The notes below the pieces were generated by a model. It was given only the letters and a program-made list of their open reading frames with translations, made no database searches and was not told where the DNA came from. 64,000 nucleotides of DNA. Source: Patescibacteria group bacterium (GTDB lineage Bacteria; Patescibacteriota; Minisyncoccia; Phycocordibacterales; UBA9973). Where the stretch lies: contig JAHIVA010000049.1 of assembly GCA_018816985.1 (NCBI GenBank), positions 2,466 through 66,465 of the forward strand, written 5' to 3'. The position numbers and the translations under genes were made by a program. Every line of letters starts with the position of its first letter. Within the stretch, counting starts at the first letter, position 1. Below are positions 16,460-61,525 of this stretch, piece after piece.

Positions 16460-17044
16460 TTACTCATCCACCCCAAAACGTTTATAGTCGTAAGTTTTTT
16501 GATTACCAAACCAGTGTTTGATTTCATGTTCCGCTTCTTCAGGAGTTTCTGAACAATGAATAATATTTGCCACAGCTCTTTTTTCTTTATTAGCAAGTGC
16601 TGGACTGTCAATAGAAAAATCTCCGCGAATAGTACCAACAACAGCTCTATATGGCAAAGTATCTCCGGCAAGTTTTCGTACAATATCCACTGCATGCACT
16701 CCTTGAATTACCATTTTAACCAATGGTGCTGATTTCATATAATCAACTAGCCACTTTCTTATCTCCGGACCAATTTTAGAGGTATCAGTAGTGCCAAAAT
16801 CAGTCAGCATATCGTATCCATATTTTTCATAGGTAGACTTAGTTTTTTCTCCCAATCGCGTAATCCATGCCTCATCTTTCGGATAATGATCATGGAGTTG
16901 CTCGTGAGTTGGTTGAAACATTTCTAGGGCCACAATCTTTAAATCCCTTTGTTCAAAACGCTTAATAACTTCACCTATCAAACCCTTCTTAACTCCGTCC
17001 GGCTTAATCATTACATATGTCTGTTCTTCTTTTAAGTGTTTCAT
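16460..17044 (-). CDS. ndk: Nucleoside diphosphate kinase (long form)
   Basis: YVMIKPDGVKKGLIGEVIKRFEQRDLKIVALEM and active-site region NIIHCSE. TAGAAT lies 7 nt upstream of the ATG. Confidence 0.85.
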   Translation of the reverse strand: MKHLKEEQTYVMIKPDGVKKGLIGEVIKRFEQRDLKIVALEMFQPTHEQLHDHYPKDEAWITRLGEKTKSTYEKYGYDMLTDFGTTDTSKIGPEIRKWLVDYMKSAPLVKMVIQGVHAVDIVRKLAGDTLPYRAVVGTIRGDFSIDSPALANKEKRAVANIIHCSETPEEAEHEIKHWFGNQKTYDYKRFGVDE

Positions 17045-17781: not shown

Positions 17782-20547
17782 TTATTCCATACTTGCATAC
17801 CTCGCCATAATTTCGGCTTCCACTTCGGTGCGGTCACGACCGTATTTTACATAAGAAAGTTCTTTTAAATTGTCTACAATCTCCGGATTACCTTTTTCGG
17901 GTGCCAGAGTTTTTAGATTAAAAGGTTTGGTTGGTTGACCTTTTACTAGCATGTTTACATAAGCGTTGTAATTATCAAGCTTGGTAATATCTTGTGCGGT
18001 AAATTGAGGCTTGAATTTTGGTTCCAAAAACGTTGCGTCTTCAGTACCAACACGAAAGACCGCCATTGAACCAACATTACCAAAAACAGCATTTTTAATA
18101 TTTTCTTCCAATTGAGTAATATATTGATGCGCAATATTAAGAGATAATCTATATTTTCTCGCTTCCGACAAAATAGAAGCGATGGAATCAGTTGTAACAT
18201 TCTGAAATTCGTCAATGTAAAGATAAAAATCATTCATTGTTTTGCCAAACATATCCACTCTTGATAATGCCGCCATTTGAATTTTACCTACCAACACCAA
18301 GCCAATCAAGTTGGCATTAATATCACCGAGTCGGCCCTTAGAAAGGTTAACCAGAAGAATTTTCTTTTCATCCATAATTTTACGAAAATTAAAAACAGAA
18401 TTTTGCTGCAACACCACCGGACGCATAATATCATTGCTAATAAAGTTATCAAATTTTGAAGAAATGTAAGGTACGAAATTCGCCAGAGACTGATCTCCAG
18501 TAGTTTGTTCAGCAGTAATCCAAAATTGCTTAATGATAGGATTTTTACATTTAGCAAGTTTCATATCCCGAAATTCTTTATCACCTAAGACACGCGTAAT
18601 CTCTAAAAGAGTCGAGCCAGATTCTGGGTCTTCCATCACCAGAAATGCACTATTGCGGAAATATTGCTCAAACATCGCCCCTCCACCAATTTTCATATCA
18701 AAAAGTTTATTAAAAATTCCCATCATTTCATTAACCACAAAAGTTTTTTGCTCCGGATATTTCGGATCATATTCAAGCATATTTAAACCCATCGGTCGTG
18801 CCGTAAAAGCCGGATCAAAATAAATCACATCATCAATGCGTTCTTTGGGGATACGAGACAAAATGGTTTGAATGTCCGTGCCATGCGGATCAATATAGCA
18901 ACATCCGTCTCCATTTTTGATATCTTGAGTTATCATATTGAGCATAATATTTGTCTTACCTGTGCCCGTTTGACCGATAGCATAAAAATGCCTCATACGG
19001 TCCTCGCGTGCTAAATGTATTTCCGTATCTTTGCCCCGATAATTATTTATTCCTAGAACTATTCCTTCTTGCCCCATTTCTATTGGAGCGGGAGCAATAC
19101 CGGCCTTAGCTTCTTTAAGTTGAGGCTGACTGCCAATGCCAACTGGAAAATGAAAAACTGAAGAAAGCTCTTTTAAATTCATTGGTAAAATTTTGTCCGC
19201 AGAAAATGTACGATAAGAAAAATCATGAAAAAGTTTTTTTAATTCGGCTCCGCTCGCTGGTTCAAAAATAAAAGAATTGCTGGCTGCTTCAGAAAACTGA
19301 TTAAAAGAAGATTCTATTTCTTTTAGAATTGCCTCCGCCCGTTCTTTACTCTCCCCTGAGGCAATCACCCGAATGTTCGCTTTCATAATAGTACTTTTTA
19401 TTTTATTGCCAATTTTTTCTGTTGCACTTTCATCCACCGCTCGCCGACCTTTCATATATTTCTCTTTCTTTTCTTCTTCGTGTTCTTTTTTCCCAAAAAA
19501 AAGTTCTTTCCCAACTTTTAGAAAAGTTTTATTAAATTTGTAAAAATTATCGGCAGCGTGTTTCACAGAAATACCATCCTTTACGTCATCTAAAATCATA
19601 TGGAATTCATTTATAAATTTATCACCGGCTGGCGCAACTATAAATTGAATCGCTGCGCCCTCTCCGGTAGTTTTAAGTTTAGAAAAAACATTTAAAATTG
19701 GATTCATAGGGTCATGCTCAATGTTGTCATAGGTTTTAATTGGAAGCACTCCACGCTGAGTAAAGCTGGCATAAGCACCAACCGAACCGCCCTTTTCATT
19801 GAAAATATTATAGTCATCAGCCACTTCACGAATTTTTGCATTGTGATAAAAAGCCAAAATCTGTTTTTCAAAAAGTGATAAATGCTTATTGGGAATTGCA
19901 GCGTAGACAACGACTTCATCATTTTGATTACCTAAGGCCACTTCCAAGGTAAAATAATTTTCTTTTTCATTATATTTCCCTTCGCCAATAGATTGCATCC
20001 CAGCATAAAATTGCTCCATGGCGCCGATGAATTCTTTAAAACTTTTTGATTTATCCGCCTCATCGGTGGGTGGAGGAAGAGTAATCTCAAAAAGAGTCAT
20101 TTTAAGAGCTTTATAAATAGGTGTTCCTTCCTTAAAATCACACACTGCTTGCCCTGTCTTCATATATTGGATTAAAATTCGATGAAAATCATCATCGAGG
20201 TGCGGATTATTCATCGCCCCTACCACCGAAAGTGCATTTCGTACACCTTTTGTAATAACAATTCCCAAAAGTTCTTCCATCACATTGTCATGAGATTCAG
20301 GTTTTAATTTCAAAACTATTCCCTCAACTTCTTTTTCACCAATAATATTATTCTTATGAACGAATTGTTCAGTTGGGATATTTTTATATTCACCAATCAC
20401 ATCCCGAGTTGCATTTTCTTTCGCATGTTCCACATGTCCAAAATTAACAAGCTGCTCTTCCCGCGCTTTCACATGAGCCCGCAAATAATCAAGCTCCTCT
20501 TCTGGAGTTTTAAACTTCGGCATTTCCTTAAAGAATGACGGTTCCAT
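17782..20547 (-). CDS. TraG/VirD4/TraD-like P-loop ATPase with a large uncharacterised N-terminal domain
   Basis: 921 aa. Walker A IGQTGTGKTN, Walker B FYLYIDEFQN and ARKYRLSLNIAHQYITQL are typical of coupling-protein/DUF87 ATPases. The first 500 aa or so match nothing I recognise, and there is no N-terminal TM. Confidence 0.55.
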   Translation of the reverse strand: MEPSFFKEMPKFKTPEEELDYLRAHVKAREEQLVNFGHVEHAKENATRDVIGEYKNIPTEQFVHKNNIIGEKEVEGIVLKLKPESHDNVMEELLGIVITKGVRNALSVVGAMNNPHLDDDFHRILIQYMKTGQAVCDFKEGTPIYKALKMTLFEITLPPPTDEADKSKSFKEFIGAMEQFYAGMQSIGEGKYNEKENYFTLEVALGNQNDEVVVYAAIPNKHLSLFEKQILAFYHNAKIREVADDYNIFNEKGGSVGAYASFTQRGVLPIKTYDNIEHDPMNPILNVFSKLKTTGEGAAIQFIVAPAGDKFINEFHMILDDVKDGISVKHAADNFYKFNKTFLKVGKELFFGKKEHEEEKKEKYMKGRRAVDESATEKIGNKIKSTIMKANIRVIASGESKERAEAILKEIESSFNQFSEAASNSFIFEPASGAELKKLFHDFSYRTFSADKILPMNLKELSSVFHFPVGIGSQPQLKEAKAGIAPAPIEMGQEGIVLGINNYRGKDTEIHLAREDRMRHFYAIGQTGTGKTNIMLNMITQDIKNGDGCCYIDPHGTDIQTILSRIPKERIDDVIYFDPAFTARPMGLNMLEYDPKYPEQKTFVVNEMMGIFNKLFDMKIGGGAMFEQYFRNSAFLVMEDPESGSTLLEITRVLGDKEFRDMKLAKCKNPIIKQFWITAEQTTGDQSLANFVPYISSKFDNFISNDIMRPVVLQQNSVFNFRKIMDEKKILLVNLSKGRLGDINANLIGLVLVGKIQMAALSRVDMFGKTMNDFYLYIDEFQNVTTDSIASILSEARKYRLSLNIAHQYITQLEENIKNAVFGNVGSMAVFRVGTEDATFLEPKFKPQFTAQDITKLDNYNAYVNMLVKGQPTKPFNLKTLAPEKGNPEIVDNLKELSYVKYGRDRTEVEAEIMARYASME

Positions 20548-24472: not shown

Positions 24473-24477
24473 AATAT

Positions 24478-24501
24478 TATGTGGCGTTAAGCTCGTAGTT
24501 A
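24478..24501 (-). repeat. Conserved stop-to-start linker, family D copy 1 (rplO stop to secY start)
   Basis: TATGTGGCGTTAAGCTCGTAGTTA matches 33758-33781 at 23 of 24 positions. The last 3 nt are the complement of the upstream stop codon. Confidence 0.7.
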
Positions 24502-25734: not shown

Positions 25735-25744
25735 TTTATTGTTA

Positions 25745-25790
25745 TCCCTATGTCGGACTTAGGGGAATTCCCCTAAGTCCGACATAGGGA
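25745..25790. repeat. Family A palindrome copy 1 (46-bp perfect palindrome)
   Basis: TCCCTATGTCGGACTTAGGGGAA / TTCCCCTAAGTCCGACATAGGGA. It fills the rplR-rplF spacer. Confidence 0.9.
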
Positions 25791-25794
25791 TTTA

Positions 25795-26349
25795 TTACAC
25801 TGTCTTTTTACCTTGTTTTCGTCTAATAACTTCATCCTCATAACGCATTCCTTTTCCCTTATAAGGCTCTGGTTTTTTCAAGGAACGAATAGCTGCCGTA
25901 AAACTTCCAACTAATTCCTTATCAATTCCGGTAATTGTAATATTATTTTTTTCAGCAGTGGCTGTTATTCCTTCTGGAATCTTTACAATAACAGGATGAG
26001 AGAATCCCAAAGCAAAATGCAACTCTTTACCTTTAATTTCCGATTTAAAACCAACCCCTTCTAATATTAATTTCTTTTGATATGGCGTAACTACTCCAGC
26101 AATCATATTTTTTAAATGGGAAGCATAAGTCCCCCAAAGAGATTTAGAAAATTTATCGTTTCTTTTTATGTTTAAATTTATGGTTTTACTTGCCCCATCT
26201 TTGGCGGGGTCAGTAATAGTAATAACAATATCGTCTCTAAAACTTTTAGTTAAAGTTCCCTTAGGGCCTGTTACTGTAAAAGTATTGCCATTTTGAGTTA
26301 CTTTTACTTCGGCTGGTATTAAAATTTCTTGTTTTCCTATTCTTGACAT
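25795..26349 (-). CDS. rplF: 50S ribosomal protein L6
   Basis: MSRIGKQEILIPAEVKV...GPKGTL. Confidence 0.9.
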   Translation of the reverse strand: MSRIGKQEILIPAEVKVTQNGNTFTVTGPKGTLTKSFRDDIVITITDPAKDGASKTINLNIKRNDKFSKSLWGTYASHLKNMIAGVVTPYQKKLILEGVGFKSEIKGKELHFALGFSHPVIVKIPEGITATAEKNNITITGIDKELVGSFTAAIRSLKKPEPYKGKGMRYEDEVIRRKQGKKTV

Positions 26350-26356
26350 ATATTTT

Positions 26357-26411
26357 TATTATTTATAGTGAGGACTTTCGGCTGAGCTCAGTCGAAGCCC
26401 TTGTCGAACTA
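26357..26411 (-). repeat. Family C stop-to-start linker copy (rpsH stop to rplF start), expanded by an internal hairpin
   Basis: mRNA sense: TAG TTCGACAAGG [GCTTCGACTGAGCTCAGCCGAAAGTC] CTCACTATAAATAAT..ATG. The bracketed hairpin is absent from the other three copies. Confidence 0.7.
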
Positions 26412-26795
26412 CCAAATTCTAAATAACGCCTCACCTCCAACTTGCTCCTTACGAGCTTCTTTACCTGATAAAATTCCTTTTGGAGTTGAAAGCACTAATA
26501 ACCCTTTTCCATTTCGAACAGAATGAATATCTTTCATTCTAAAGTAAACACGCCTAGATTGTTTAGAAATTCTTTCCACTTCAGCAATTTTCGGTTTTTT
26601 GTCAACATAAAGCAAATTTACCTCGAGCACAGGGTGTCCTGATTTTACTTTTTTAGAAATTTCAGAAACATAACCGGCTTTTTTTAAACATTCACCGATA
26701 GCATTTTTCATCTTAGAATAAGGAATTAACACAGACTCTTTGCCTGCTAGTGACCCGTTCTTCATTATTATTATCATATTTGAAATTGAATCCAT
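26409..26795 (-). CDS. rpsH: 30S ribosomal protein S8
   Basis: 128 aa. DSISNMIIIMKNG...GGEALFRIW matches the S8 termini. Confidence 0.9.
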   Translation of the reverse strand: MDSISNMIIIMKNGSLAGKESVLIPYSKMKNAIGECLKKAGYVSEISKKVKSGHPVLEVNLLYVDKKPKIAEVERISKQSRRVYFRMKDIHSVRNGKGLLVLSTPKGILSGKEARKEQVGGEALFRIW

Positions 26796-26807
26796 TTTGT
26801 TTTATTC

Positions 26808-26851
26808 CCTATGTCGGACTTAGGGGAGTTCCCCTAAGTCCGACATAGGGT
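26808..26851. repeat. Family A palindrome copy 2 (44 bp, central mismatch)
   Basis: CCCTATGTCGGACTTAGGGGAGTTCCCCTAAGTCCGACATAGGG in the rpsH-rpsZ spacer. Confidence 0.9.
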
Positions 26852-26858
26852 TATATTT

Positions 26859-27044
26859 CTACCAACTTGACTTACGAACACCTGGTAACATTCCTTCATT
26901 GGCTAATTCCCGAAAACAAATACGACAAATACCAAAGTCTCTCATAAAAGCATTACCCCGCCCACAGCGAAAACAACGATTTTTAGCCCGAGTGGAAAAT
27001 TTTGGTTTCTTTAAAGCTCTTGCTTTGACTGATGTTTTTGCCAT
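26859..27044 (-). CDS. rpsN: 30S ribosomal protein S14, type Z (zinc-binding, 61 aa)
   Basis: [29 protein letters not shown]...CRICFRE has the two CxxC pairs. The upstream part of the ORF is rejected. Confidence 0.9.
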
Positions 27045-27150
27045 AAATAAATATTGCCCATATATTAGGTGATATCTTGTGTGTTTTCTTAAAACCTCAT
27101 AGAAAGCCTTAAGGAGAAACACAGATCAAACCTAGCTTCTGGACCCTTTG

Positions 27151-27179
27151 ATACTAGCAAATTGGGCTTAATTAGTCAA
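27151..27179 (-). promoter_or_regulatory. Internal sigma70-like promoter upstream of rpsZ (TTGACT-17-TAGTAT)
   Basis: - strand TTGACTaattaagcccaatttgcTAGTAT. It shares AATTTGYTAGTAT with the tuf and rpsS promoters. About 100 nt of leader follow. Confidence 0.5.
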
Positions 27180-27182
27180 CTT

Positions 27183-27770
27183 TTATTTTTTATTTTCTTC
27201 CTCCTTTTTAAAAGGAATCCCTAAGATTTCAAAAAAAGCGGTACCTTCTTTTTTATTCTTAGCAGAAGAAACCAGTGTAATAGACATACCAAAAATATCC
27301 CTAATATCTTCATCAGCTGTTTCCGGAAAAATCGTATGCTCTCTTATCCCGATAGTTAAATTGCCAATATTATCTACTGCCACACGATTAATACCACGAA
27401 AATCTTTTGTTCTAGGAAGAGCAATATTAATAAGTTTCTCTAAAAAAGAATACATTCTCTTGCCCCGTAAAGTAACAACAATTCCGACTGGATCACCCTG
27501 ACGAATCTTGAAAGAAGAAATGGATTGTTTAGCTCCGCGAAAAGCAGTTTTTTGACCAGTAATTTTCGCCAAACGGTCACCAATATCTTCATTTTTGTTC
27601 TTATCTTTTTTTACCATCGTTCCAGTCCCAACATTAATAACGACTTTCATCATTCTTGGAGCAGCCAAAATATTTTTAAAATGAAACTCCGAGCCTAACG
27701 CCCCAGTAAAGTTTTTCATTTTTTCAAAAGCCTCTCTTTCTTTTTCTTTTACAGTTAATTGTTTTGTCAT
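27183..27770 (-). CDS. rplE: 50S ribosomal protein L5
   Basis: 195 aa. KVVINVGTG... and operon position. Confidence 0.9.
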   Translation of the reverse strand: MTKQLTVKEKEREAFEKMKNFTGALGSEFHFKNILAAPRMMKVVINVGTGTMVKKDKNKNEDIGDRLAKITGQKTAFRGAKQSISSFKIRQGDPVGIVVTLRGKRMYSFLEKLINIALPRTKDFRGINRVAVDNIGNLTIGIREHTIFPETADEDIRDIFGMSITLVSSAKNKKEGTAFFEILGIPFKKEEENKK

Positions 27771-27774
27771 ATGT

Positions 27775-27996
27775 TTATTTATCTAATTTTTTAACGTTTG
27801 AAACATCAATCGGCATCGCTATATTAACCATACTTCCCTTCTCCCCAGACTTCCTTGGGCGCTGATGTTTTTTCATCATATTTAATCCTTCGACAATAAC
27901 CTTATTTTCTTTAACTAAAACACGAACAATCTTCCCAGATTTTCCTTTATCTTTTCCTGTTATCACTTTTACATTTTCTCCTTTTTTTATTTTCAT
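27775..27996 (-). CDS. rplX: 50S ribosomal protein L24
   Basis: MKIKKGENVKVITGKDKGKSGKIVRV (KOW motif). The longer start at 28014 would run into the hairpin. Confidence 0.9.
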   Translation of the reverse strand: MKIKKGENVKVITGKDKGKSGKIVRVLVKENKVIVEGLNMMKKHQRPRKSGEKGSMVNIAMPIDVSNVKKLDK

Positions 27997-28008
27997 ATAC
28001 TTTTTTGT

Positions 28009-28052
28009 GTACAAGGTCTTGCCTTTAAGATTGCCAAGGCAAGACCTTGTAC
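28009..28052. repeat. Family B hairpin copy 1 (17-bp stem)
   Basis: GTACAAGGTCTTGCCTT-taagattgcc-AAGGCAAGACCTTGTAC in the rplN-rplX spacer. The arm core AAGGYCTTGCCTT is shared with 31239-31275. Confidence 0.85.
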
Positions 28053-28056
28053 TCTT

Positions 28057-28428
28057 TTAAATTACTTCCTGCGCTAAAGAAATTATTTTTTGAAATCCTT
28101 TTTCAGCTAATTCTCTAGGAATCGGTCCAAAAACACGGCCCGCTTTCGGATCTTTTTTTCCTTTTTCCAAGATAACTACAGCATTATCATCAAAACGAAT
28201 ATAAGAACCGTCTTTACGTCGGTAGGCGCTCCTTGTGCGAACAACCACTGCTTGATGCACGTCTTTTTTCTTAACTCCTTTTCTTGGACTAGCTACTTTG
28301 ACCGAAATAATAACCAGCTCACCAAGCGTGGCATATCTTTTTTTTGAAGACCCTAAAATCTTAAACACCTTTCCTACGGTGCCTCCGGCATTGTCTGTTA
28401 TTTTTACTAAAGTTTCATTTTGTATCAT
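28057..28428 (-). CDS. rplN: 50S ribosomal protein L14
   Basis: MIQNETLVKITDNAGG is the classic L14 start. Confidence 0.9.
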   Translation of the reverse strand: MIQNETLVKITDNAGGTVGKVFKILGSSKKRYATLGELVIISVKVASPRKGVKKKDVHQAVVVRTRSAYRRKDGSYIRFDDNAVVILEKGKKDPKAGRVFGPIPRELAEKGFQKIISLAQEVI

Positions 28429-28451
28429 TTTTGTCCGCTTAATGCGGGAAA

Positions 28452-28688
28452 TTATTTTTTAACTATTTTAAATCTTTTATCTTTTGATATTGGTCGAGTT
28501 TCAATTATTTCCACCTTATCGCCTATTTTTGATTCATTGTTCTCGTCGTGAGCTTTGAATTTTTTATTGACTTTATAAAACTTTCCATAAAGAGGATGTT
28601 TAACAAATCTGGACACAGAAACAACCACAGTTTTATTCATTTTATCTGAAACAACTATTCCTTTTATTTTTTTTGCTTTATTTTCCAT
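28452..28688 (-). CDS. rpsQ: 30S ribosomal protein S17
   Basis: [16 protein letters not shown]...HPLYGK motif. Confidence 0.9.
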
Positions 28689-28691
28689 ATA

Positions 28692-28877
28692 TTACTTATT
28701 AATTTCTGTCAAAATCCTTGCTATTTGTTTTTTAAGAGCTGAGGCTTCTTTTACATTTTTTGATTTAGAACCTTCCGCCTTAAAATGCAGTACTCGCAAA
28801 TTTTCTTGTAAAAGGATGAGTTCTTTTTTAAGCTCATCTTTTTTCATCTCTTTGAAATTGTTAATTTTCTTTGCCAT
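28692..28877 (-). CDS. rpmC: 50S ribosomal protein L29
   Basis: 61 aa, helical, in the conserved position between rplP and rpsQ. Confidence 0.85.
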   Translation of the reverse strand: MAKKINNFKEMKKDELKKELILLQENLRVLHFKAEGSKSKNVKEASALKKQIARILTEINK

Positions 28878-28882
28878 ATATC

Positions 28883-28912
28883 TTAATTATTTATAGTGAA
28901 CCTGTCGAACTA
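28883..28912 (-). repeat. Family C stop-to-start linker copy (rplP stop to rpmC start)
   Basis: mRNA sense: TAG TTCGACAGGTTCACTATAAATAATTAA gatat ATG. Confidence 0.75.
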
Positions 28913-29338
28913 TTGATTATGAGCTCTGCTGATAATGCGTGTTTTTAGCGGAAGTTTAGAACCAGCTTTTCGTAAAGCTTCCTGCGCAACCTTTTCCTCC
29001 ACGCCATCTACTTCAAAAATAATTCGTCCAGGTAAAACATCAAAACAATATCCCTGTGGATCTCCTTTTCCTTTTCCCATACCTACTTCAGCCGCTTTGG
29101 CGGTAAAAGGACGGTCTGGAAAAATACGGATCCAGTATTTACCAGTTTTGGTCAAGGTACGAGAAATAACTTTTCGGGCAGATTCAATCTGAGTTGATTT
29201 TACTCGCGCCTGAGTTTCGGATTTTAAACCGAAAGAACCAAAAACCAACTTAATACCACGCGTATCTGCTGTCCGTGCTTTTGGATTAGAGCGTCCCGTT
29301 TGCCATTTTCTAAATTTTACTTTTTTAGGAGTTAACAT
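28910..29338 (-). CDS. rplP: 50S ribosomal protein L16
   Basis: MLTPKKVKFRKWQTGR. Confidence 0.9.
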   Translation of the reverse strand: MLTPKKVKFRKWQTGRSNPKARTADTRGIKLVFGSFGLKSETQARVKSTQIESARKVISRTLTKTGKYWIRIFPDRPFTAKAAEVGMGKGKGDPQGYCFDVLPGRIIFEVDGVEEKVAQEALRKAGSKLPLKTRIISRAHNQ

Positions 29339-29342
29339 AAAT

Positions 29343-30053
29343 TTAATCAGAATCTGTCTTAGTGTTATTTTCTAATGATTCATTTTTTTTCGTATTTTTA
29401 TCGCTAAAAATTTTACCCCGATATATCCAAACTTTAATCCCCACTACTCCATAGGAAAGAGTAGCCCGTTCACGCTTAAAATCAATATCCGCGCGGAAGC
29501 TCTGAAGCGGAACAGATCCTCGTTTCAATTCTTCGGTACGGGCAATTTCGGCTCCCCCCAGTCGGCCGGACAAAACAATTCTGGCACCTTCTACTCCATG
29601 AGCCTGCATAACTTTTTCAATAATTTGCTTAATGACTCGGCGATAAGGCATTCTTTTTTCCAACCCTTCGGCAATCATATAAGCAACAATAGCGGCATCA
29701 GCTTCTGGATTAGAAACTTCAAGGATTTCAAGTTTAAAATCCTCTGGTCGAACCAATTTCAATTTATCCATTTTCTTTAAAATATCTTCTTTGAGCTTGG
29801 TCGCTCCCTCACCACTTCGGCCGATTAAAAGGCCCGGTCGGGAAGTCTTAACTATGAAACGAGTCGCTTTTCTACTTCTCTCAATTTCAATACTAGAAAT
29901 ATACATCCCTCGTAATTTTTTCTCTAAATATTGACGTATTAAAACATCTCCTTTTAAATAAGAAATATATTTTTTAGGATCAGCAAACCAACGAGACTTC
30001 CAGTCTCTTAATATAATCAATCTATGTGCATATGGGTGAACTATTTTACTCAT
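29343..30053 (-). CDS. rpsC: 30S ribosomal protein S3
   Basis: KIVHPYAHRLIILRDWKSRWFA, plus KH and S3-C domains. Confidence 0.9.
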   Translation of the reverse strand: MSKIVHPYAHRLIILRDWKSRWFADPKKYISYLKGDVLIRQYLEKKLRGMYISSIEIERSRKATRFIVKTSRPGLLIGRSGEGATKLKEDILKKMDKLKLVRPEDFKLEILEVSNPEADAAIVAYMIAEGLEKRMPYRRVIKQIIEKVMQAHGVEGARIVLSGRLGGAEIARTEELKRGSVPLQSFRADIDFKRERATLSYGVVGIKVWIYRGKIFSDKNTKKNESLENNTKTDSD

Positions 30054-30055
30054 AA

Positions 30056-30388
30056 TTATTTAACTTTTTTTTCTGCTAAAAGAATATTCAGGTGGCTAGT
30101 ACGCTTATTTATCCTGTGCCCTGAGCCCATAGCTGCCGGCATCATTCTTTTCATTGTAATACCTTTATCTACTCGCAATTCTTTGATAAATAAATTATTC
30201 GCCTCCATTCCCTTTTCTTTAGCATTGGCGACAGCGGAAAGTAAAAGTTTTTTAATCGGTAACCCTGCACGTTTAGCTAAAAAATCAAGCTCAACAATTG
30301 CTTGCATTACGTTTTTACCCTTGATTAGTCCAGCTACTAAGCGAACTTTTCTCGGAGACTGTCTGTAATTTTTTAAAAATGCTTTCAT
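30056..30388 (-). CDS. rplV: 50S ribosomal protein L22
   Basis: YRQSPRKVRLVAGLIKGKNV. Confidence 0.9.
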   Translation of the reverse strand: MKAFLKNYRQSPRKVRLVAGLIKGKNVMQAIVELDFLAKRAGLPIKKLLLSAVANAKEKGMEANNLFIKELRVDKGITMKRMMPAAMGSGHRINKRTSHLNILLAEKKVK

Positions 30389-30392
30389 TGTT

Positions 30393-30425
30393 TTAATAAT
30401 TATTTATAGTGAGCCTGTCGAATTA
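30393..30425 (-). repeat. Family C stop-to-start linker copy (rpsS stop to rplV start)
   Basis: mRNA sense: TAA TTCGACAGGCTCACTATAAATAATTATTAAAACA ATG. Confidence 0.75.
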
Positions 30426-30776
30426 TTTTTTCTCGCCCTTAGCGTCCTCGGAGACGGCAGTCGCAGACTTAGCTTGAGTTATTTCGGCTTCTTTCTTTTT
30501 CATTTCCAATTCTTTCTGCATCTTTCCTCCGTGCTTCATAAATTTCTTAGTTGGGGAAAATTCACCTAATCGATGCCCCACCATATCTTCCGTGACCAAA
30601 ACTTCTATATGTGTTTTACCGTTATAAATACCAAAAGTAAAACCAAGCATCTCTGGAGAAATCACGCAGGCTCTCTTCCAAGTCTTCACCATCGGAGTTT
30701 GTAACGGGTTTTTGCCGGCAATCTTTTTCAAGAGCCTTTCATCAACATTTAATCCTTTTTTGATACTTCTAGTCAT
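30423..30776 (-). CDS. rpsS: 30S ribosomal protein S19 (with K/E-rich C-terminal tail)
   Basis: MTRSIKKGLNVDERLLKKI...GIYNGKTHIEVLVTEDMVGHRLGEFSPT. The upstream 17 codons of the ORF are rejected. Confidence 0.9.
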   Translation of the reverse strand: MTRSIKKGLNVDERLLKKIAGKNPLQTPMVKTWKRACVISPEMLGFTFGIYNGKTHIEVLVTEDMVGHRLGEFSPTKKFMKHGGKMQKELEMKKKEAEITQAKSATAVSEDAKGEKK

Positions 30777-30802
30777 GTATTTTTTCTTTAGACAAACAAA
30801 AC

Positions 30803-30818
30803 GGCTCTCATTTGAGCC
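30803..30818 (-). promoter_or_regulatory. Hairpin plus U-tract at the predicted 5' end of the rpsS transcript
   Basis: - strand GGCTC-aaatga-GAGCC followed by gttttgtttg. It begins about 7-8 nt after the -10 box. Confidence 0.45.
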
Positions 30819-30825
30819 TTGAATC

Positions 30826-30853
30826 ATACTAACAAATTCAAGAAAAAAGTCAA
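30826..30853 (-). promoter_or_regulatory. Sigma70-like promoter restarting the operon at rpsS (TTGACT-16-TAGTAT)
   Basis: - strand TTGACTtttttcttgaatttgtTAGTAT is nearly identical to the tuf promoter at 35613-35640. Confidence 0.55.
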
Positions 30854-30866
30854 TAAAAACACGAAA

Positions 30867-30887
30867 GGCTCAATTTTCCTTTGAGCC
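30867..30887 (-). terminator. Intrinsic-terminator-like hairpin ending the rplB-proximal transcript
   Basis: - strand GGCTCA-aaggaaaat-TGAGCC followed by tttcgtgttttt. Confidence 0.5.
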
Positions 30888-31285
30888 GTTTAAAATATTT
30901 AAAATTGTGTGGGGTTCGGAGAGAGATAAACTCTTCCGAACCCCGAGCACTTGACGCTATTTATTGTTTGGATGCTGATACTTTTTCAAGTCGCCCCCCC
31001 CTCCTACCTTTTTTGGGAGGTAATCCCCTTGCCTCCCGGAGTTTTTTTATCATCGCCTTTTTCGTGGAGTTGCCCCTATTTTTCAAAAAAGAGTGGCACA
31101 TTTTTCAATCCTCCAAAAAGTAGTGGGAAACCTGTTCCCCCATCGGTCAAGACACCGACAGTACAAAGAACAGGCTTTATTTATCTGTAACACATATTAT
31201 CAATGCAAGCAATAGAAAATGTGGAAAACTTTCTCCTCAAGGCCTTGCCTTGGGCTCCCCTTAAGGCAAGGCCTTTTTTCGAAAA
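30888..31285. ncRNA. Unassigned structured G+C-rich non-coding region between rplB and rpsS (strand and identity unknown)
   Basis: Several stable helices, a C8 tract and no credible ORF. See the findings for details. Confidence 0.3.
31239..31275. repeat. Family B hairpin copy 2 (13-bp stem)
   Basis: AAGGCCTTGCCTT-gggctcccctt-AAGGCAAGGCCTT, immediately after the rplB stop and followed by TTTTTT on the + strand. Confidence 0.85.
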
Positions 31286-32125
31286 TTATTTATTCTTCCC
31301 GGTCTTTCTCCTAGAAACCATAAAGACATTTGAGTATTTTTTTGGTCCACGAGTTTTGCGTCCGCCGGTAACTTTACCCCACTTTGTTTTCGGTCTCTTA
31401 GTTCCGCGCCCTTGTCTGCCTTCTCCACCTCCATATGGATGGTCAACCGGATTCATTGCTGTACCGCGAACTGTCGGACGAATGCCTTTCCAGCGACTCC
31501 GTCCAGCTTTGCCGTAATTTTCCAAATGATGTTCTTCGTTGGAAACAGTCCCGACACAAGCCCAACAATTTTCATTTATTTTTCTTATTTCAGTAGAAGG
31601 CATTTTCAGATTGGTGTAACCATCAGCATTGGCCACCACTTGCGCGAAAATTCCTGCCGAACGACCAATCTTAGCACCTCCCTCTCTTTTAATTTCAATA
31701 TTATAAACAAAAGTTCCAACTGGAATATTTTTTAAAGGCAATCTGTTGCCTGTTTTAACTTCTGCTTTTTCAGAAACAATAAAAGAATCACCAGCTTTCA
31801 CAGACTTAGGTAAAATTACATATCTTTTTTCTCCATCTTTATAAACAGCCAATCCAATAAAAGCCGAGCGATTTGGATCATATTCAATAGTTTTTATTTT
31901 AGCTAAAATGTCTTTTTTATTATACAAAAAATCAACGGCGCGATAGAGGCGTTTGTGCCCGCTACCTTTATGCCTCATGGTAATACGTCCAGCACTATTT
32001 CTGCCGACGCTACGCCTGAAACCATAAGTCAGTGATTTAGTCGGTTTTGACTTGGTTAAAATTTCGCGGTAGTTCACGTTGGTCATTTGCCTTCTTGATT
32101 TGGTTGTTGGTTTGTATGTTTTCAT
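31286..32125 (-). CDS. rplB: 50S ribosomal protein L2
   Basis: GRNSAGRITMRHKGSGHKRLYR and GTAMNPVDHPYGGGEG. Confidence 0.95.
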   Translation of the reverse strand: MKTYKPTTKSRRQMTNVNYREILTKSKPTKSLTYGFRRSVGRNSAGRITMRHKGSGHKRLYRAVDFLYNKKDILAKIKTIEYDPNRSAFIGLAVYKDGEKRYVILPKSVKAGDSFIVSEKAEVKTGNRLPLKNIPVGTFVYNIEIKREGGAKIGRSAGIFAQVVANADGYTNLKMPSTEIRKINENCWACVGTVSNEEHHLENYGKAGRSRWKGIRPTVRGTAMNPVDHPYGGGEGRQGRGTKRPKTKWGKVTGGRKTRGPKKYSNVFMVSRRKTGKNK

Positions 32126-32397
32126 TATATAAATTCTATCTTGTCACCCTTTTTTAAATATACCAAGGCTTTCCGACCACCACCCTTTGTCCCCTTTTTA
32201 CCTTTCCACATAACATTTTTCTTTGGCACAGTTAAAACATTTACTTTCACCGGCTTTACTTTATAAAGAGTAAAAATAGCTTTTTTGATTTCTGTCTTAT
32301 TAGCGGAAGCGGTAATATCAAAAGTGTAAACATTTTGTTCGGCGGAAAAAGATGCTTTCTCAGTAATTCTTGGATTTTTAATAATTTGTATTGTCAT
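32125..32397 (-). CDS. rplW: 50S ribosomal protein L23
   Basis: 90 aa. ITEKASFSAEQNVYTFDI...KTEIKKAI. Confidence 0.9.
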   Translation of the reverse strand: MTIQIIKNPRITEKASFSAEQNVYTFDITASANKTEIKKAIFTLYKVKPVKVNVLTVPKKNVMWKGKKGTKGGGRKALVYLKKGDKIEFI

Positions 32398-32406
32398 AAT
32401 GATTTT

Positions 32407-32456
32407 GTTCCCTAAGTCGAACTTAGGGGAAATCCCCTAAGTTCGACTTAGGGAAC
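32407..32456. repeat. Family A palindrome copy 3 (24-bp arms, 2-nt centre)
   Basis: GTTCCCTAAGTCGAACTTAGGGGA-aa-TCCCCTAAGTTCGACTTAGGGAAC in the rplW-rplD spacer. Confidence 0.9.
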
Positions 32457-32459
32457 TAT

Positions 32460-33119
32460 TTAACCTCTGGATTCTAAAAATTTAACTGCTTCGACTGGAT
32501 TTTCTATTAAAAGATATTGGTGGTTTAAAACATCTAATGGATTTAAGTTTTTTAGAAAAACTATTTGAAGCTGAGGCAAATTTCTAAAACTCTTTTCTAT
32601 TTTTTCATCACGCCCAAAAAGAGCTGTTAGGACTCGAGCTTTCTTTGAACTGCCCAGCGGTTTCAACCCAGAAGCTTTGGCTAAATTTTTCATAACTTCC
32701 ACTGCAGATTTTGTTTTTATTGAAGAGGTAGAAAGAGTATTAATAAAAATAATTTCTCCATCTTTAAACTTTTTAGAAAGAACTGAAAATAAAGCTTGCG
32801 CACGCATTTTCTTGGATATTTTTCTTTTGTAATTTTTTTCAGCCAAGGGTCCGTGAGTAACTCCTCCACCAACCCAAATAGGACTACGAGAAGACCCGTG
32901 TCGGGCTCGTCCGGTTCCTTTTTGTTTCCAGGGTTTCTTGCCTCCACCACGCACTTCTCCACGATCTTTAGTGTCGGCTGTTCCGGCGCGTTTATTTGAA
33001 CGCATTCCTTCCACTACTTGATGCACTAAATCTGCCCGCCATTTAGCAGCAAAAATTTTAGCAGGAAGATCTATTGATCCAGCCACTGCACCTTTTTGAT
33101 CATATATTTTTGTTTGCAT
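32460..33119 (-). CDS. rplD: 50S ribosomal protein L4
   Basis: MQTKIYDQKGAVAGSIDLP...KPWKQKGTGRARHGS. An alternative start lies at 33131. Confidence 0.9.
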   Translation of the reverse strand: MQTKIYDQKGAVAGSIDLPAKIFAAKWRADLVHQVVEGMRSNKRAGTADTKDRGEVRGGGKKPWKQKGTGRARHGSSRSPIWVGGGVTHGPLAEKNYKRKISKKMRAQALFSVLSKKFKDGEIIFINTLSTSSIKTKSAVEVMKNLAKASGLKPLGSSKKARVLTALFGRDEKIEKSFRNLPQLQIVFLKNLNPLDVLNHQYLLIENPVEAVKFLESRG

Positions 33120-33136
33120 TTTTGCTTCCATAAAAA

Positions 33137-33751
33137 TTATCTCTGTACTATTTCCACTAAAGTTCCACGGCGACCAGCAATTGCTCCCTTAACTAGCAGT
33201 AAATTGTTTTCCTTGTCTACAAAAATAACTTGCAGATTTTTCTGAGTAATACGATTAGAACCCATTCTACCTGCCATTCTCATTCCCTTAGGAACGTGGG
33301 TACGCAATCCTCCACCAATGCTTCCAGGCTCTCGTTCAGAATGTTTTTGACCGTGAGTTCGTGGACCGCCAGAAAAACCATGACGCTTTACTACACCTTG
33401 AAAGCCCTTACCCTTGGAAATACTGGATACTGATATCTTGTCTCCAGGAGTAAAGATTGAAACATCAATACTATCACCTTCTTTAACACTAACCGTATCT
33501 GCCGGTTTAAGTCTAAATTCTTTAAGAGTTTTATAAAAACCTCCTTTCATTGCTCCTGCTTGAGACTTTGTAATTCTTTCCTTTTTCTGCAACCCAAAAC
33601 CAACTTGCACAGAATCATAACCGTCTTTTGATTTTTCAAAAATTCTAGTTACGATACTGGGTGTGGCAGAAACAATAGAAACTGGAACAACTTCTCCAGT
33701 ATCGGAAAAATATTCTGTCATATTTTCTTTTATCCCCAAAATAAATTTCAT
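33137..33751 (-). CDS. rplC: 50S ribosomal protein L3
   Basis: GKGFQGVVKRHGFSGGPRTHGQ. Confidence 0.9.
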   Translation of the reverse strand: MKFILGIKENMTEYFSDTGEVVPVSIVSATPSIVTRIFEKSKDGYDSVQVGFGLQKKERITKSQAGAMKGGFYKTLKEFRLKPADTVSVKEGDSIDVSIFTPGDKISVSSISKGKGFQGVVKRHGFSGGPRTHGQKHSEREPGSIGGGLRTHVPKGMRMAGRMGSNRITQKNLQVIFVDKENNLLLVKGAIAGRRGTLVEIVQR

Positions 33752-33757
33752 GTTTTT

Positions 33758-33781
33758 TATGTGGCATTAAGCTCGTAGTTA
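33758..33781 (-). repeat. Conserved stop-to-start linker, family D copy 2 (rpsJ stop to rplC start)
   Basis: TATGTGGCATTAAGCTCGTAGTTA; see 24478-24501. Confidence 0.7.
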
Positions 33782-34240
33782 CATCATTTTCACATCAATA
33801 TCAACACCAGAAGGAAGAGTTAAATTAGTCAAAGCTTCAACGGTCTTAGGATTTGGATTGATGATATCAATTAATCTTTTATGCACTCTTATTTCAAATT
33901 GTTCTCGACTATTTTTGTAGATAAAAGCAGAACGATTAACTGTATATTTTTTAATTTCAGTTGGGAGTGGCACCGGACCTACTATCTGCGCATCATAACG
34001 AATAGCAGTGTCTATAATTTGTTTGACTGAGCTGTCAAGTATTTTACTTTCATAAGCTCGTACCCGAATGCGAAGTATCACCTTATTCTCACCTCCGACG
34101 ACATGAGTAGGTTTCTCTTTTTCTTTTTTTGAAGAAACTCTCGGTGTCTTAGGTGCTTTTACGGTTTTCACTGTTGTGGTTTTTGCCACTTTAGGTTTTT
34201 TTGTTTTTGTTTCTGTTATTGCCATGAACTTTTTCTCCAT
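33779..34240 (-). CDS. rpsJ: 30S ribosomal protein S10 with a Lys-rich N-terminal extension of about 50 aa
   Basis: The core is [25 protein letters not shown]...GPVPLPTE. The start is at 34240 or 34225, and the first ATG lies inside the palindrome. Confidence 0.85.
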
Positions 34241-34279
34241 AAGTTAGACTTAGGGGAATTCCCCTAAGTCTAACTTATG
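34238..34279. repeat. Family A palindrome copy 4 (42-bp perfect palindrome)
   Basis: CATAAGTTAGACTTAGGGGAA / TTCCCCTAAGTCTAACTTATG in the tuf-rpsJ spacer. Confidence 0.9.
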
Positions 34280-35656: not shown

Positions 35657-35914
35657 TTATTTATAAATATCATGGTCGCCTACCGAATGAAAATAGATTA
35701 CTTTTTCCGAAGCAAATTCAAATATTATTCTATAGCTATATGATATAGAAAAAGCCCAGTTAGGATATAATCTACCGGAAAGTTTATGTGTCTCAAGTGA
35801 TGGATGAAAAGGATTTTTTCTAAAAATTTTCTCTTTTTTCTTTGCGGATAATTTTAATTCAGCAGTCAGCTTTCTATATTCACGCTCAAATTTTGAAGAG
35901 TAAATTATCTGCAT
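35657..35914 (-). CDS. RelE/ParE-superfamily type II toxin
   Basis: 85 aa. FEREYRKL....H.LSG....W.F.I.YSYRIIF resembles RelE/YafQ/ParE-like toxins. It lies 12 nt downstream of the antitoxin gene. Confidence 0.7.
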   Translation of the reverse strand: MQIIYSSKFEREYRKLTAELKLSAKKKEKIFRKNPFHPSLETHKLSGRLYPNWAFSISYSYRIIFEFASEKVIYFHSVGDHDIYK

Positions 35915-35926
35915 AAAAATATAATT

Positions 35927-36142
35927 TTAATCCAGGTCAGCTAGTGATCTAAGAATTTTTCCCTCCCCACGAGCTATTTCGGCCCGACTTTCACGAATTT
36001 CTTTTACAAGTTGTTCTTCTTTCCAGCTTCTTACCGCATCTCTAAAAAACTCACTCACGGAAGCGTAATTGCCCGCTTTGACTTGTTTTTCTACTTCATG
36101 CTTTAGCTCTTTCGGTATTGAAATATTTAAGGTTGTTCTCAT
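35927..36142 (-). CDS. Ribbon-helix-helix (ParD/CopG-like) antitoxin
   Basis: 71 aa. The N-terminal MRTTLNISIPKELKHEVEK looks like an RHH beta-strand and SVSEFFRDAVR like its helix. Confidence 0.7.
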   Translation of the reverse strand: MRTTLNISIPKELKHEVEKQVKAGNYASVSEFFRDAVRSWKEEQLVKEIRESRAEIARGEGKILRSLADLD

Positions 36143-36148
36143 ATATCA

Positions 36149-36178
36149 AGTGTAGCACATTGTGCTACAGGGTGTCAA
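36149..36178 (-). promoter_or_regulatory. TA-module promoter (TTGACA-18-TACACT-6-ATG) with an embedded palindromic operator
   Basis: The palindrome TGTAGCAC-att-GTGCTACA (36151-36169) sits between the -35 and -10 boxes, as expected for RHH autoregulation. Confidence 0.5.
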
Positions 36179-36447
36179 ATCAAGACCCCGTCTAATAATT
36201 TAAATTCAAATGGAATTTCTTTGGCATTTTTTTTGCCTTTGTATTTTTCTTCCAATTCGCGTTTTTTGGCTTCCAATTCTTCCATAGTAAAACCCATTTC
36301 TTTTATTTTTTGTTCTCCTAATTTATAAAATGTAGGAGAGAAACCAACGGTTTTAATTCCAAGGTCTTTTCTACCAACACCGATAAACCAATCAAAAGGT
36401 ATTTCCTTTTTCTGTTCCGATTTTATGTTTGGACCTTCGGTGCTCAT
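36175..36447 (-). CDS. Hypothetical 90-aa protein
   Basis: MSTEGPNIK... with the internal repeat EIPFDWF / EIPFEFK. The start was chosen because TATAAT lies 6 nt upstream. Confidence 0.45.
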   Translation of the reverse strand: MSTEGPNIKSEQKKEIPFDWFIGVGRKDLGIKTVGFSPTFYKLGEQKIKEMGFTMEELEAKKRELEEKYKGKKNAKEIPFEFKLLDGVLI

Positions 36448-36463
36448 TTTTTTATTATATAAC

Positions 36464-36487
36464 AAAAAACACCCTTAGGTGTTTTTT
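36464..36487. terminator. Bidirectional intrinsic terminator after fusA
   Basis: AAAAAACACC-ctta-GGTGTTTTTT. Confidence 0.65.
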
Positions 36488-38644: not shown

Positions 38645-38649
38645 ATATT

Positions 38650-38680
38650 TTAATTATTTATAGTGAGCATAGTCGAACTA
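38650..38680 (-). repeat. Family C stop-to-start linker copy (rpsG stop to fusA start)
   Basis: mRNA sense: TAG TTCGACTATGCTCACTATAAATAATTAAAATAT ATG. Confidence 0.75.
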
Positions 38681-40317: not shown

Positions 40318-40566
40318 ATGAAAACATGCATGGTAACAAAAAAAAGTTCAATCGTCGGAGGCGGATATTCTAATAGAACCCGTGCCACTAAATTTAACCC
40401 AACTGGCAAGAAAAGAAAATACCCCAATCTTCAAAAGAAGAAGCTTTTTGTTCCTGAACTAAATAAATCAATCAATATAGAAGTTAGTCCCCGCGGCATG
40501 CGTACCATGAAAAAGCGTGGCACCTATGCCACGCTTCTCAAAGCTGGACTTATCCAAGCAAAATAA
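40318..40566 (+). CDS. rpmB: 50S ribosomal protein L28
   Basis: MKTCMVTKKSSIVGGGYSNRTRATKF..PNLQKKKLFVPE matches the L28 pattern. Confidence 0.8.
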   Translation: MKTCMVTKKSSIVGGGYSNRTRATKFNPTGKKRKYPNLQKKKLFVPELNKSINIEVSPRGMRTMKKRGTYATLLKAGLIQAK

Positions 40567-41026
40567 AAAAATCCCCATTTGGGGATTTTTTTATTTTTTG
40601 TTTTTTGTTTTTTTCTTTCTCCTTAGTTAAAATTTCATTTACTCTCATATCCCTATCGTCATATTTTACCGGAACCTTGTCTCCGATGTTATATTTTTCA
40701 TAATCTTCTTTTAATATAGAAAAAGAAGTTTCCAACTCTTTTATCTTTAAAATTATTATCCACTCTTCTGGATGTGGAACAATTACTGAAATTTTTCCTG
40801 CCATCAGTACTTGGTTAGATGGTTCCTCATGATTTTTCTTCACAATTACCGCTTCTCCTTGTTTTTCATGCTCCTTTCTTTCAGCAGAATCATTTTTCAA
40901 AAACTTATCAAACTTATAAGCCCCAGCAGCAATGGCACCCACGGCCACTGCACCCACTCCCAAATTTTTTAAGAATTCTCGACGATTCATTTTGTTATCA
41001 TTTTGTTTTGGTAAACTTTCTTTCAT
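40550..41026 (-). CDS. Hypothetical exported protein with a twin-arginine-type signal peptide
   Basis: MNRREFLKNLGVGAVAVGAIAAGA fits the (S/T)RRxFLK consensus. The start may be M13 (40990). Confidence 0.5.
   Translation of the reverse strand: MKESLPKQNDNKMNRREFLKNLGVGAVAVGAIAAGAYKFDKFLKNDSAERKEHEKQGEAVIVKKNHEEPSNQVLMAGKISVIVPHPEEWIIILKIKELETSFSILKEDYEKYNIGDKVPVKYDDRDMRVNEILTKEKEKNKKQKIKKSPNGDFFILLG
40565..40592. terminator. Bidirectional intrinsic terminator (AAAAAAATCCCC-attt-GGGGATTTTTTT)
   Basis: Perfect 12-bp stem immediately after the rpmB stop. It lies inside the 3' end of the convergent ORF. Confidence 0.65.
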
Positions 41027-61491: not shown

Positions 61492-61525
61492 AAAACAAAA
61501 CCCCTTTAAAAAGGGGTTTTGTTTT
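61492..61525. terminator. Bidirectional intrinsic terminator (15-bp stem)
   Basis: AAAACAAAACCCCTT-taaa-AAGGGGTTTTGTTTT between the convergent permease and small ORF. Confidence 0.7.

Follow-up and report, generated by a model that had tools for sequence, protein, structure and literature searches.

The 64,000-nt stretch analysed here (the window; positions 2,466 to 66,465 of contig JAHIVA010000049.1, assembly GCA_018816985.1) derives from a Patescibacteria group bacterium and includes its S10-spc ribosomal protein operon, in which four of the spacers between genes are occupied by large palindromes. Pfam assignments of the flanking genes, all on the minus strand, place the palindromes in the L6|L18, S14|S8, L4|L23 and EF-Tu|S10 spacers, as named in an earlier note made from the sequence alone, which also located them to within 1 nt. 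Palindrome 1 (25744–25791, minus strand, as are all four) lies in the L6|L18 spacer with the stop codon 3 nt upstream, and has 24-nt arms without a gap (ATCCCTATGTCGGACTTAGGGGAA and TTCCCCTAAGTCCGACATAGGGAT); its predicted RNA hairpin (-44.3 kcal/mol, z = -10.3) is followed by a single-stranded A-rich tail, AACAAUAAA (25735–25743), that runs up to the L18 AUG. Palindrome 2 (26807–26850, S14|S8) has 21-nt arms identical to those of palindrome 1 around a 2-nt centre, with the loop AACU in the mRNA sense, a stop codon 8 nt upstream, and an A-rich tail, AAUAAAACAAA (26796–26806), that precedes the S8 AUG. Palindrome 3 (32407–32456, L4|L23) has 24-nt arms, GTTCCCTAAGTCGAACTTAGGGGA, around a 2-nt centre and a stop codon 3 nt upstream; each arm is itself a 7-bp hairpin, CCCTAAG-TCGAA-CTTAGGG, and the A-rich tail AAAAUCAUU (32398–32406) follows the AAC of the stem end and precedes the L23 AUG. 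Palindrome 4 (34238–34279, EF-Tu|S10) has 21-nt arms without a gap that are the most divergent of the four (CATAAGTTAGA...), a stop codon 4 nt upstream and the tail GAGAAAAAGUUC (34226–34237) before the likely S10 start codon at 34225; an ATG at 34240, within the palindrome, is unlikely to be used as the S10 start. S10 itself (33779–34225) has 148 aa in the source record against the usual ~100, with a Lys/Thr-rich N-terminal extension of ~45 aa that is also present in relatives.

The arms are 100% self-complementary in all four palindromes. The core that the earlier note had described as common to them, CTTAGGGGANNTCCCCTAAG, occurs four times in the window against 0.04 occurrences expected from dinucleotide-preserving shuffles, but GAATTC, which had been reported at the dyad of three copies, is present only in those at 25744 and 34238, the other two having GAGTTC and GAAATC. 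The coding-strand RNA of each copy is predicted to fold into one hairpin of -34 to -45 kcal/mol (z = -7 to -10), in line with the suggestion that these are long perfect duplexes on the polycistronic mRNA, and the 9–12 nt after each stem are unpaired in the predicted fold, together with the AUG. A covariance model of the family finds in the 64 kb only these four copies and a weak match (20 bits) at 28009–28052 (minus strand), which is a 17-bp hairpin of unrelated sequence in the L14|L24 spacer. Its geometry is that of the palindromes, with the stop codon plus 4 nt, the hairpin, ACAAAAAAGUAU and then the AUG at 27996, and among relatives (designated here by L numbers) the same slot contains a canonical palindrome in L068 and a core variant in L021. 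The remaining ribosomal protein spacers are not all of 1–30 nt as had been thought; several are of 32–34, 42, 59, 138 and 458 nt, and these hold other repeated motifs or hairpins.

Scans for the exact core returned 26 loci from 185,579 species genomes and 45 from JGI/ENA metagenome contigs. The same architecture, with differing but compensated middles, is present in ~25 other contigs of the Candidate Phyla Radiation (CPR)/Paceibacterota, non-ribosomal operons included, and the element is not confined to the four sites in the window. The low-GC CPR matches are from Paceibacterota, Nomurabacteria, a bin labelled Saccharibacteria and groundwater sites including Hainich and Rifle, and all of them extend into perfect arms of 18–24 nt. 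Most matches outside the CPR (in Streptomyces, Treponema, Clostridia and others) have short stems or are terminator-like and were rejected as family members; by our own estimate their number is about that expected by chance for an 18-base palindrome in 596 Gb.

Each element consists of a base CCC(C)nAnG, a variable middle of 5–6 nt (TCGGA, CCTTG, CCGGG, ACCGT, CGAGG, CAAGG, TCAGA, TCGAA, TTAGA and others), the apex CTTAGGGG, a 4-nt loop, and CCCCTAAG. When 26 distinct copies, drawn from the window and the other contigs, are aligned without gaps, 97.4% of cells are Watson–Crick or wobble pairs and both sides are changed in 12 of the 13 variable pairs; there are 87 double-change cells against 22 in shuffles, with none of 500 shuffles as high, and sliding the partner column by one lowers the pairing to 52–59%. 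The proposal that changes in the arms are compensated is thus borne out, and the pairing is kept non-randomly. That the apical 8 bp do not vary is due solely to the scan, which demanded them, and relatives found by other routes have other apices in the same layout, including CTTCGGGG (L021, L14|L24), GATAGGGG (L083, L6|L18), CCTAAGGG (L082, EF-Tu|S10) and CTTGTGG (L034). The basal heptamer is approximately the reverse complement of the apical heptamer, so that each arm is a small imperfect hairpin X-N5-X' (with X close to CCCTAAG), and in a CCACAAG variant the base and the apex are altered together. The whole element is therefore a doublet in which two inverted small hairpins, with a 4-nt centre, make up one perfect stem of 21–24 bp. 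We considered the fold into two small hairpins as the conserved structure and set it aside, as it is not kept in L007, L009 and L021 while the long stem always is. G-U pairs occupy only 3 of the 520 inner cells, a scarcity better accounted for, judged from the alignment, if a perfect palindrome is copied or homogenised as DNA than if selection is relaxed and acts on the RNA.

Rfam contains no family that matches at the gathering score, and relaxing E up to 10 yields only chance matches of the microRNA and small-RNA type far below threshold; a full-text search for the core sequence found no paper, in agreement with the view that this core had not been described. Nor did a literature search recover any paper linking REP (repetitive extragenic palindromic) sequences, REPINs (hairpin-forming REP doublets), RAYTs (REP-associated tyrosine transposases) or intercistronic palindromes with Patescibacteria. 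Two other origins were rejected: the core occurs zero times in IMG/VR, which argues against a phage source, and CCCCTAAG/CTTAGGGG are found outside palindromes only twice in the 64 kb, which argues against a DNA uptake sequence.

The elements are nearly always between co-directional genes of an operon, and all of the copies examined are in spacers outside coding regions, with the flanking open reading frames (ORFs) stopping before the element and beginning after it. Outside the S10-spc operon the gene pairs include pilB/pilT|pilC, response regulator|pilT, dnaG|rpoD, rodA|folD, macB|macB and pyridoxal phosphate enzyme|release factor. The S10-spc operon itself contains all four window copies and 7 of the 22 other distinct copies, the latter an enrichment of ~8-fold (p = 2e-5 against a ~4% share of spacers, this share being our own rough estimate). 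The placement relative to the codons is strict: in 28 hairpin-bearing spacers the median distance is 5 nt from stop to stem (interquartile range 3–6) and 10.5 nt from stem to start (interquartile range 9–12). Flanks on the 5' side are rich in A/T, and on the 3' side stands the A-rich tail with ACAAA, a motif which in operons sampled independently of the element is present in 5 of 7 hairpin spacers versus 9 of the 50 remaining spacers that reach 12 nt (p = 0.007). Because the tail is always toward the downstream gene, the unit is oriented despite its symmetric stem. Palindromes of unrelated sequence are found in the same kind of slot with the same geometry at L4|L23 of L060, at L3|L4 of L063 and at L14|L24 of the window, and 17 of the 26 copies contain stop codons in all three sense frames.

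This geometry and the oriented tail indicate that the elements interact with translation, and they are found in a genome in which Shine–Dalgarno (SD) sequences are all but missing. An SD-like motif precedes 3 of the 84 window ORFs (3.6%) versus 8% in the background, and 23 of the 84 have a TAnAAT box ending 6–10 nt before the ATG, with an extended -10 form TGnTATAAT; the placement of these boxes implies, on sequence grounds, that putatively leaderless transcripts are widespread in this Paceibacterota genome. Most intra-operon spacers are of 0–15 nt and A/T-only, and the internal cistrons of such an SD-less host probably rely on termination-linked initiation, whose coupling efficiency drops quickly as the stop-to-start distance grows (PMC12548453). 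Two simple roles for the hairpins can be rejected. Sequestration of an SD site, the GGGA with which the stem ends on its 3' side, does not accord with SD-like motifs in numbers below background, and the hairpins are not intrinsic terminators, as what comes after the stem is an A-rich tail (AACAAAA), with no suitably placed U-tract on either strand, whereas true terminators in the window carry T-runs (for example at 40560–40597 and 61492–61525).

The presence of the element at any one gene pair is variable. We compared nine core-bearing contigs that are syntenic with the window operon (70–78% DNA identity) and five further relatives picked solely by L4 similarity (85–90%). At L4|L23 there is a canonical palindrome in five lineages but a plain spacer of 5–31 nt in all five relatives picked by L4, so a conserved 'hairpin slot' at this position, which the core-ascertained relatives had seemed to indicate, fails where relatives are chosen independently of the element. 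L060 has at L4|L23 a perfect palindrome of unrelated sequence (CAGGTGTTGGACACCGAGATCTCGG...). The S10|L3 spacer, which in the window contains another motif, is occupied by a canonical palindrome in L060 and is 2 nt long in L063; the EF-Tu|S10 spacer is 17 nt in L049, and L060 and L063 have decayed copies there. At L23|L2, L059 has half a copy, which corresponds to a deletion between two direct CCCCTA repeats of a full copy. Counted per operon, there are four large palindromes in the window (plus the one unrelated hairpin), one each in L082 and L083, none in L084 and L085, and ~4 in L086 that are of another or a degenerate family.

Copies are also shared between spacers that are not orthologous. 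An identical 44-nt sequence, CCCTATGTCGGA..core..TCCGACATAGGG, is present at L6|L18 and S14|S8 of the window, at L14|L24 of L068 and upstream of pilC in L032, in genomes that are only 72–77% identical elsewhere, and L060 has the same 5' arm at S10|L3 with two substitutions in the 3' arm that produce two U-G mismatches in the stem. Arms are likewise shared within a genome or sample, by two copies in L021, two in L059, and by L052 with L061. No consistent direct repeats flank the copies, and A/T-rich flanks could mask short duplications. The density is four copies in ~76 kb of the source contig, all in one operon, and the family model found no copies in 120 kb of additional related sequence, including ~12 kb more of the source contig. 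Taken at the level of sequence comparison, this turnover bears the signatures of a dispersing repeat family, not of a conserved gene-specific regulatory site. Comparison of orthologous spacers, as the earlier note had proposed, therefore reveals both presence/absence and compensated arm changes, and among the functions it listed (RNase III-type processing sites, stability elements, translational insulators and REP-like mobile palindromes) the last is the best supported, by presence or absence in spacers, by the copies shared among non-orthologous spacers and by the decayed and half copies.

A candidate enzyme for such dispersal is encoded ~7 kb from the palindromes on the source contig, which is ENA ERZ27247128 k141_699838 of 112,942 bp. 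The minus-strand gene at 41096–41746 codes for a 216-aa RayT/IS200-like Y1 (HUH) transposase (Y1_Tnp, Pfam 35.9 bits) with the HUH motif HFHLIV and the tyrosine motif YVHLNS, although its match to NCBIfam REP_Tyr_transpos is weak (23.9 bits against a cut-off of 80). Conserved homologues of the protein number more than 2000; every one with a named source is from Patescibacteria, and most are on few contigs each. The hairpin that flanks the gene in the window, L073, L075 and L076 is, however, a different one, TGTCAAACA-YCGGG-TGTTTGACA, and no CCCTAAG-type palindrome adjoins any of the RayT genes examined, so we reject a link between RayT and the palindromes by adjacency. In the window the RayT unit spans 41067–41799 and includes hairpins at 41067–41089, 41554–41576 and 41777–41799; two identical direct copies of CTGTCAAACA-CCCGA-TGTTTGACAG bracket the gene, and the third hairpin, in inverted orientation, forms part of the coding sequence and encodes the residues VKHRVFD. 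The unit is at different chromosomal sites in the window, L073, L075 and L076 genomes, and is absent from the DEAD-helicase|L28 gap of L083 and L086. These comparisons point to a hairpin-specific single-stranded DNA transposition machinery in these genomes. Since RAYTs are defined by their flanking cognate REPs (PMC3337134), the predicted cognate repeat of this gene is the TGTCAAACA hairpin and not the palindromes.

In layout and behaviour the palindromes match REP/REPIN elements, which in proteobacteria are associated with RAYTs. Both are short extragenic palindromic repeats dispersed in operons, both have a doublet of inverted small hairpins that makes one long hairpin in which the poorly conserved part stays complementary (PMC3337134), both have a lineage-specific consensus, and here too there is a RayT-like Y1 transposase in the genome. 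There are also clear differences. The palindromes are perfect and 42–50 bp long with a 4-nt centre, whereas REPs are outlined in PMC3733652 as imperfect and 20–40 bp, and PMC3337134 gives a single REPIN length, 89 bp, and REP-to-REP distances of ~34–110 bp. The flanks of the 26 aligned copies contain no GTAG or CGTC, the 3' flank being RACAAA, the density is low in the DNA examined, and the RayT-like gene has another hairpin beside it. On three of the features that define classical REP/REPINs (the GTAG/CGTC tag, a RAYT flanked by the same repeat and imperfect palindromy) the family thus departs from them, and its unusual feature is the fixed order of stop, hairpin, oriented A-rich tail and start in an SD-less host.

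Other known repeats can be set beside the family. Miniature inverted-repeat transposable elements have terminal inverted repeats and a target-site duplication and derive from an insertion sequence; here the whole element is an inverted repeat, and no parent insertion sequence was seen. The mycobacterial interspersed repetitive units are also dispersed within operons, gene-oriented and thought to leave coupling intact (PMC12548453), but they are direct repeats with a mini-ORF overlapping the neighbouring start codon, while the elements here are palindromic and mostly closed in all sense frames, so that any compatibility with coupling would come from folding and not from being translated. Repetitive hairpin elements and GC-rich palindromic clusters of organelles, as these are outlined in PMC2800124 and PMC2670323, are similarly G+C-richer hairpins in the spacers of compact A+T-rich genomes for which the mobilising enzyme is likewise not established; they belong to eukaryotic organelles, have no common sequence, and stop/start geometry is not among the properties outlined for them in these two accounts. 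The RNA-unfolding coupling hairpins of phages f1 (genes VII/IX) and MS2 are single and gene-specific and usually sequester an SD site, unlike the repeated, transferable cassette in an SD-less host described here.

The explanation we favour, with a probability of about one half, is that the palindromes are REP/REPIN-like dispersed repeats of the CPR (Paceibacterota, Nomurabacteria) that persist only where the hairpin keeps stop and start codons close. It rests on what is shown here of structure, compensated arms, family membership, geometry, turnover and lack of SD sites, and from these we infer an effect on translation and a means of spread. Copies would be gained and lost in spacers between co-directional genes, would be transcribed within the operon mRNA, and would survive only in one layout, with the stem 2–8 nt after the stop codon and ~9–12 nt before the AUG, and with an unpaired ACAAA tail. 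With no SD sites in the host, internal cistrons would depend on short stop-to-start distances, and a stable hairpin would collapse the 44–50 nt insertion such that stop and start remain ~12–15 nt apart in space. The terminating ribosome could then melt the base of the stem and expose the tail, and the unpaired A-rich tail would present the AUG, so that translational coupling would be preserved and possibly enforced. The Y1/HUH transposase is one candidate for the copying mechanism. Several observations weigh against this explanation: no transposase is linked to the element, the RayT gene in the window having a different hairpin (TGTCAAACA...); no target-site duplication is evident; and the density (none in the 120 kb of related loci) is unlike that of classical REPs. 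In addition, selection for an RNA function would explain the operon enrichment and oriented tail no less well than selfish spread would, and a stem of -45 kcal/mol could block, not help, a scanning ribosome.

A selected RNA function is the likeliest of the alternatives, and we regard it as possible though doubtful. The hairpin and its A-rich tail would be a dedicated module, a portable SD-independent signal for initiation or reinitiation, and its spread would be secondary; in a variant of this proposal the hairpin acts as a clamp and the downstream AUG could be used only if the upstream cistron is translated, which could set subunit stoichiometry. The strict geometry with the tail facing the downstream gene, the enrichment in the most highly expressed operon, and the unrelated hairpins in the same slots with the same geometry are all as such a module would have them, internal cistrons of an SD-less, leaderless genome need some other signal, and there is a precedent for RNA unfolding in phage f1 genes VII/IX, where a long hairpin ends just before the start codon (PMC12548453). 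However, most relatives have plain spacers of 1–30 nt at the same pairs and two have no operon palindrome at all, so no gene pair needs the element; decayed and half copies persist, and G-U pairs, which an RNA function would tolerate, are nearly absent. A combination of the two ideas, in which the hairpin and ACAAA tail are a self-propagating SD-independent intercistronic translation module whose stem bridges stop and start and makes use of the downstream AUG depend on upstream termination, is slightly more doubtful still. The plain spacers of most relatives also count against RNase III sites, or sites for another double-strand-specific enzyme, at which the polycistronic transcript would be cut into units with defined ends and stabilities. 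Perfect stems of 21–24 bp come to about two helical turns, the minimal substrate of bacterial RNase III; they lie exactly between cistrons, and a related genome encodes RNase III (L073, 6525–7220). Yet generic recognition of double-stranded RNA does not require conserved sequences at apex and base, and cleavage would leave leaders of at least ~20 nt with no obvious gain in a leaderless system, and we think this role quite unlikely.

Two further explanations concern the DNA itself. It is unlikely that the palindromes are strictly REPINs, in which case they would be non-autonomous and the RayT-like transposase at 41096–41746 would copy them: they have the REP-doublet layout as defined in PMC3337134, and the Y1_Tnp protein has its catalytic motifs, many homologues in Patescibacteria and some resemblance to REP_Tyr_transpos, but that score is far under the cut-off, the RayT genes of four genomes have their own different hairpin, and none of those examined has a CCCTAAG-type palindrome beside it. 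There may be a second RAYT elsewhere in the genome, besides the one flanked by TGTCAAACA-N5-TGTTTGACA. The other is a DNA-level element that, through cruciform extrusion or symmetric protein binding, absorbs transcription-driven supercoiling in highly transcribed operons, a role that has been proposed for REP/BIME-gyrase sites. Strict Watson–Crick symmetry almost without G-U pairs, the AATT centre and the enrichment in a highly transcribed operon are in keeping with it, but it leaves the placement relative to codons and the orientation of the tail unexplained, the window shows no enrichment of the heptamer elsewhere and no candidate binding protein was found, and it seems very unlikely.

The operon spacers contain several other repeats. 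A second, non-palindromic motif, TTCGACAGGCTCACTATAAATAAT, is at 38645–38677 (S7|EF-G), 30389–30422 (S19|L22), 28878–28909 (L16|L29) and 26350–26408 (S8|L6), the last copy being split by an inserted small palindrome; it begins directly after the stop codon (mostly TAG), and ends at the next ATG. L063, L084, L085 and L086 have the motif as well, in part at the same slots. A stretch within it, CTCACTATA, resembles phage T7-type promoters, a similarity that may be coincidence. A third motif, CTACGAGCTTAAYGCCACATAA, is at 33752–33778 (S10|L3) and 24473–24498 (before secY), and in relatives at L23|L2 of L041, S3|L16 of L068, L14|L24 of L083 and L084, and L6|L18 of L084; these differing slots suggest that in this clade a number of unrelated 'spacer cassettes' travel between intercistronic positions. 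Another intercistronic hairpin family, GTTGGACA(C/T)C...G(G/A)TGTCCAAC, has copies, some of them degenerate, in slots of the same kind and with identical geometry, at L4|L23 of L060 and at S7|EF-G, S8|L6, L6|L18 and L2|S19 of L086. Tandem (AAAGTTAT)n-like repeats fill the L29|S17 and S17|L14 spacers of L068 and the L3|L4 and L18|S5 spacers of L085. In L076, a Nomurabacteria relative, there is yet another intergenic palindrome, (A)AGTGGTCAACCTGSCAGGTTGACCACT(T), at 15925–15951, 16630–16658 and 17983–18001, which suggests that lineage-specific palindrome families are common in CPR genomes.

With 458 nt the L2|S19 spacer (30828–31285) is unusually long. A hairpin in it, GGCCTTGCCTT..AAGGCAAGGCC (31239–31275), resembles the L14|L24 hairpin at 28009–28052, and the spacer also has a possible 72-aa plus-strand ORF (30972–31190) with no Pfam match. 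The corresponding gap in relatives is 336–2195 nt with terminators, promoter-like TTGAC..TATTAT sequences and inserted genes, and the S10 operon therefore appears to be split at this position. The fusA-tuf gap (35657–36142) contains a YafQ-like toxin gene (35657–35914; a weak Pfam match under the family cut-off) and a ribbon-helix-helix antitoxin gene (35927–36142), together with a 96-aa ORF (36175–36465), and the EF-G/EF-Tu gap of relatives has different insertions, such as pyrimidine genes in L085. On the source contig ~6–7 kb beyond window coordinate 1, an RVT_1 gene adjoins a bAvd gene (L079, 16020–17429), a pairing that suggests a putative diversity-generating retroelement, and it is absent at this position from the near-identical strain GCA_043812335.1 (L078).

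The CPR, or Patescibacteria, represent a large part of bacterial diversity in which gene-expression signals are almost uncharted, and the palindromes described here indicate that streamlined genomes of ~1 Mb too carry dispersing palindromic repeats, even within their most essential operon. The family could be used as a marker for strain typing and for following repeat dynamics in metagenomes. If a Y1 transposase mobilises the family, then REPIN/RAYT-type systems extend to the CPR, a connection for which our literature search found no paper. The layout of stop, hairpin, tail and start offers a testable handle on how internal cistrons are translated in an SD-less host, and if the element should be a self-propagating translation module, it would be a new class of bacterial translation signal, beyond tolerated selfish DNA, and would mean that SD-less, largely leaderless, ultra-small CPR bacteria wire the translation of their operons with a mobile RNA cassette.

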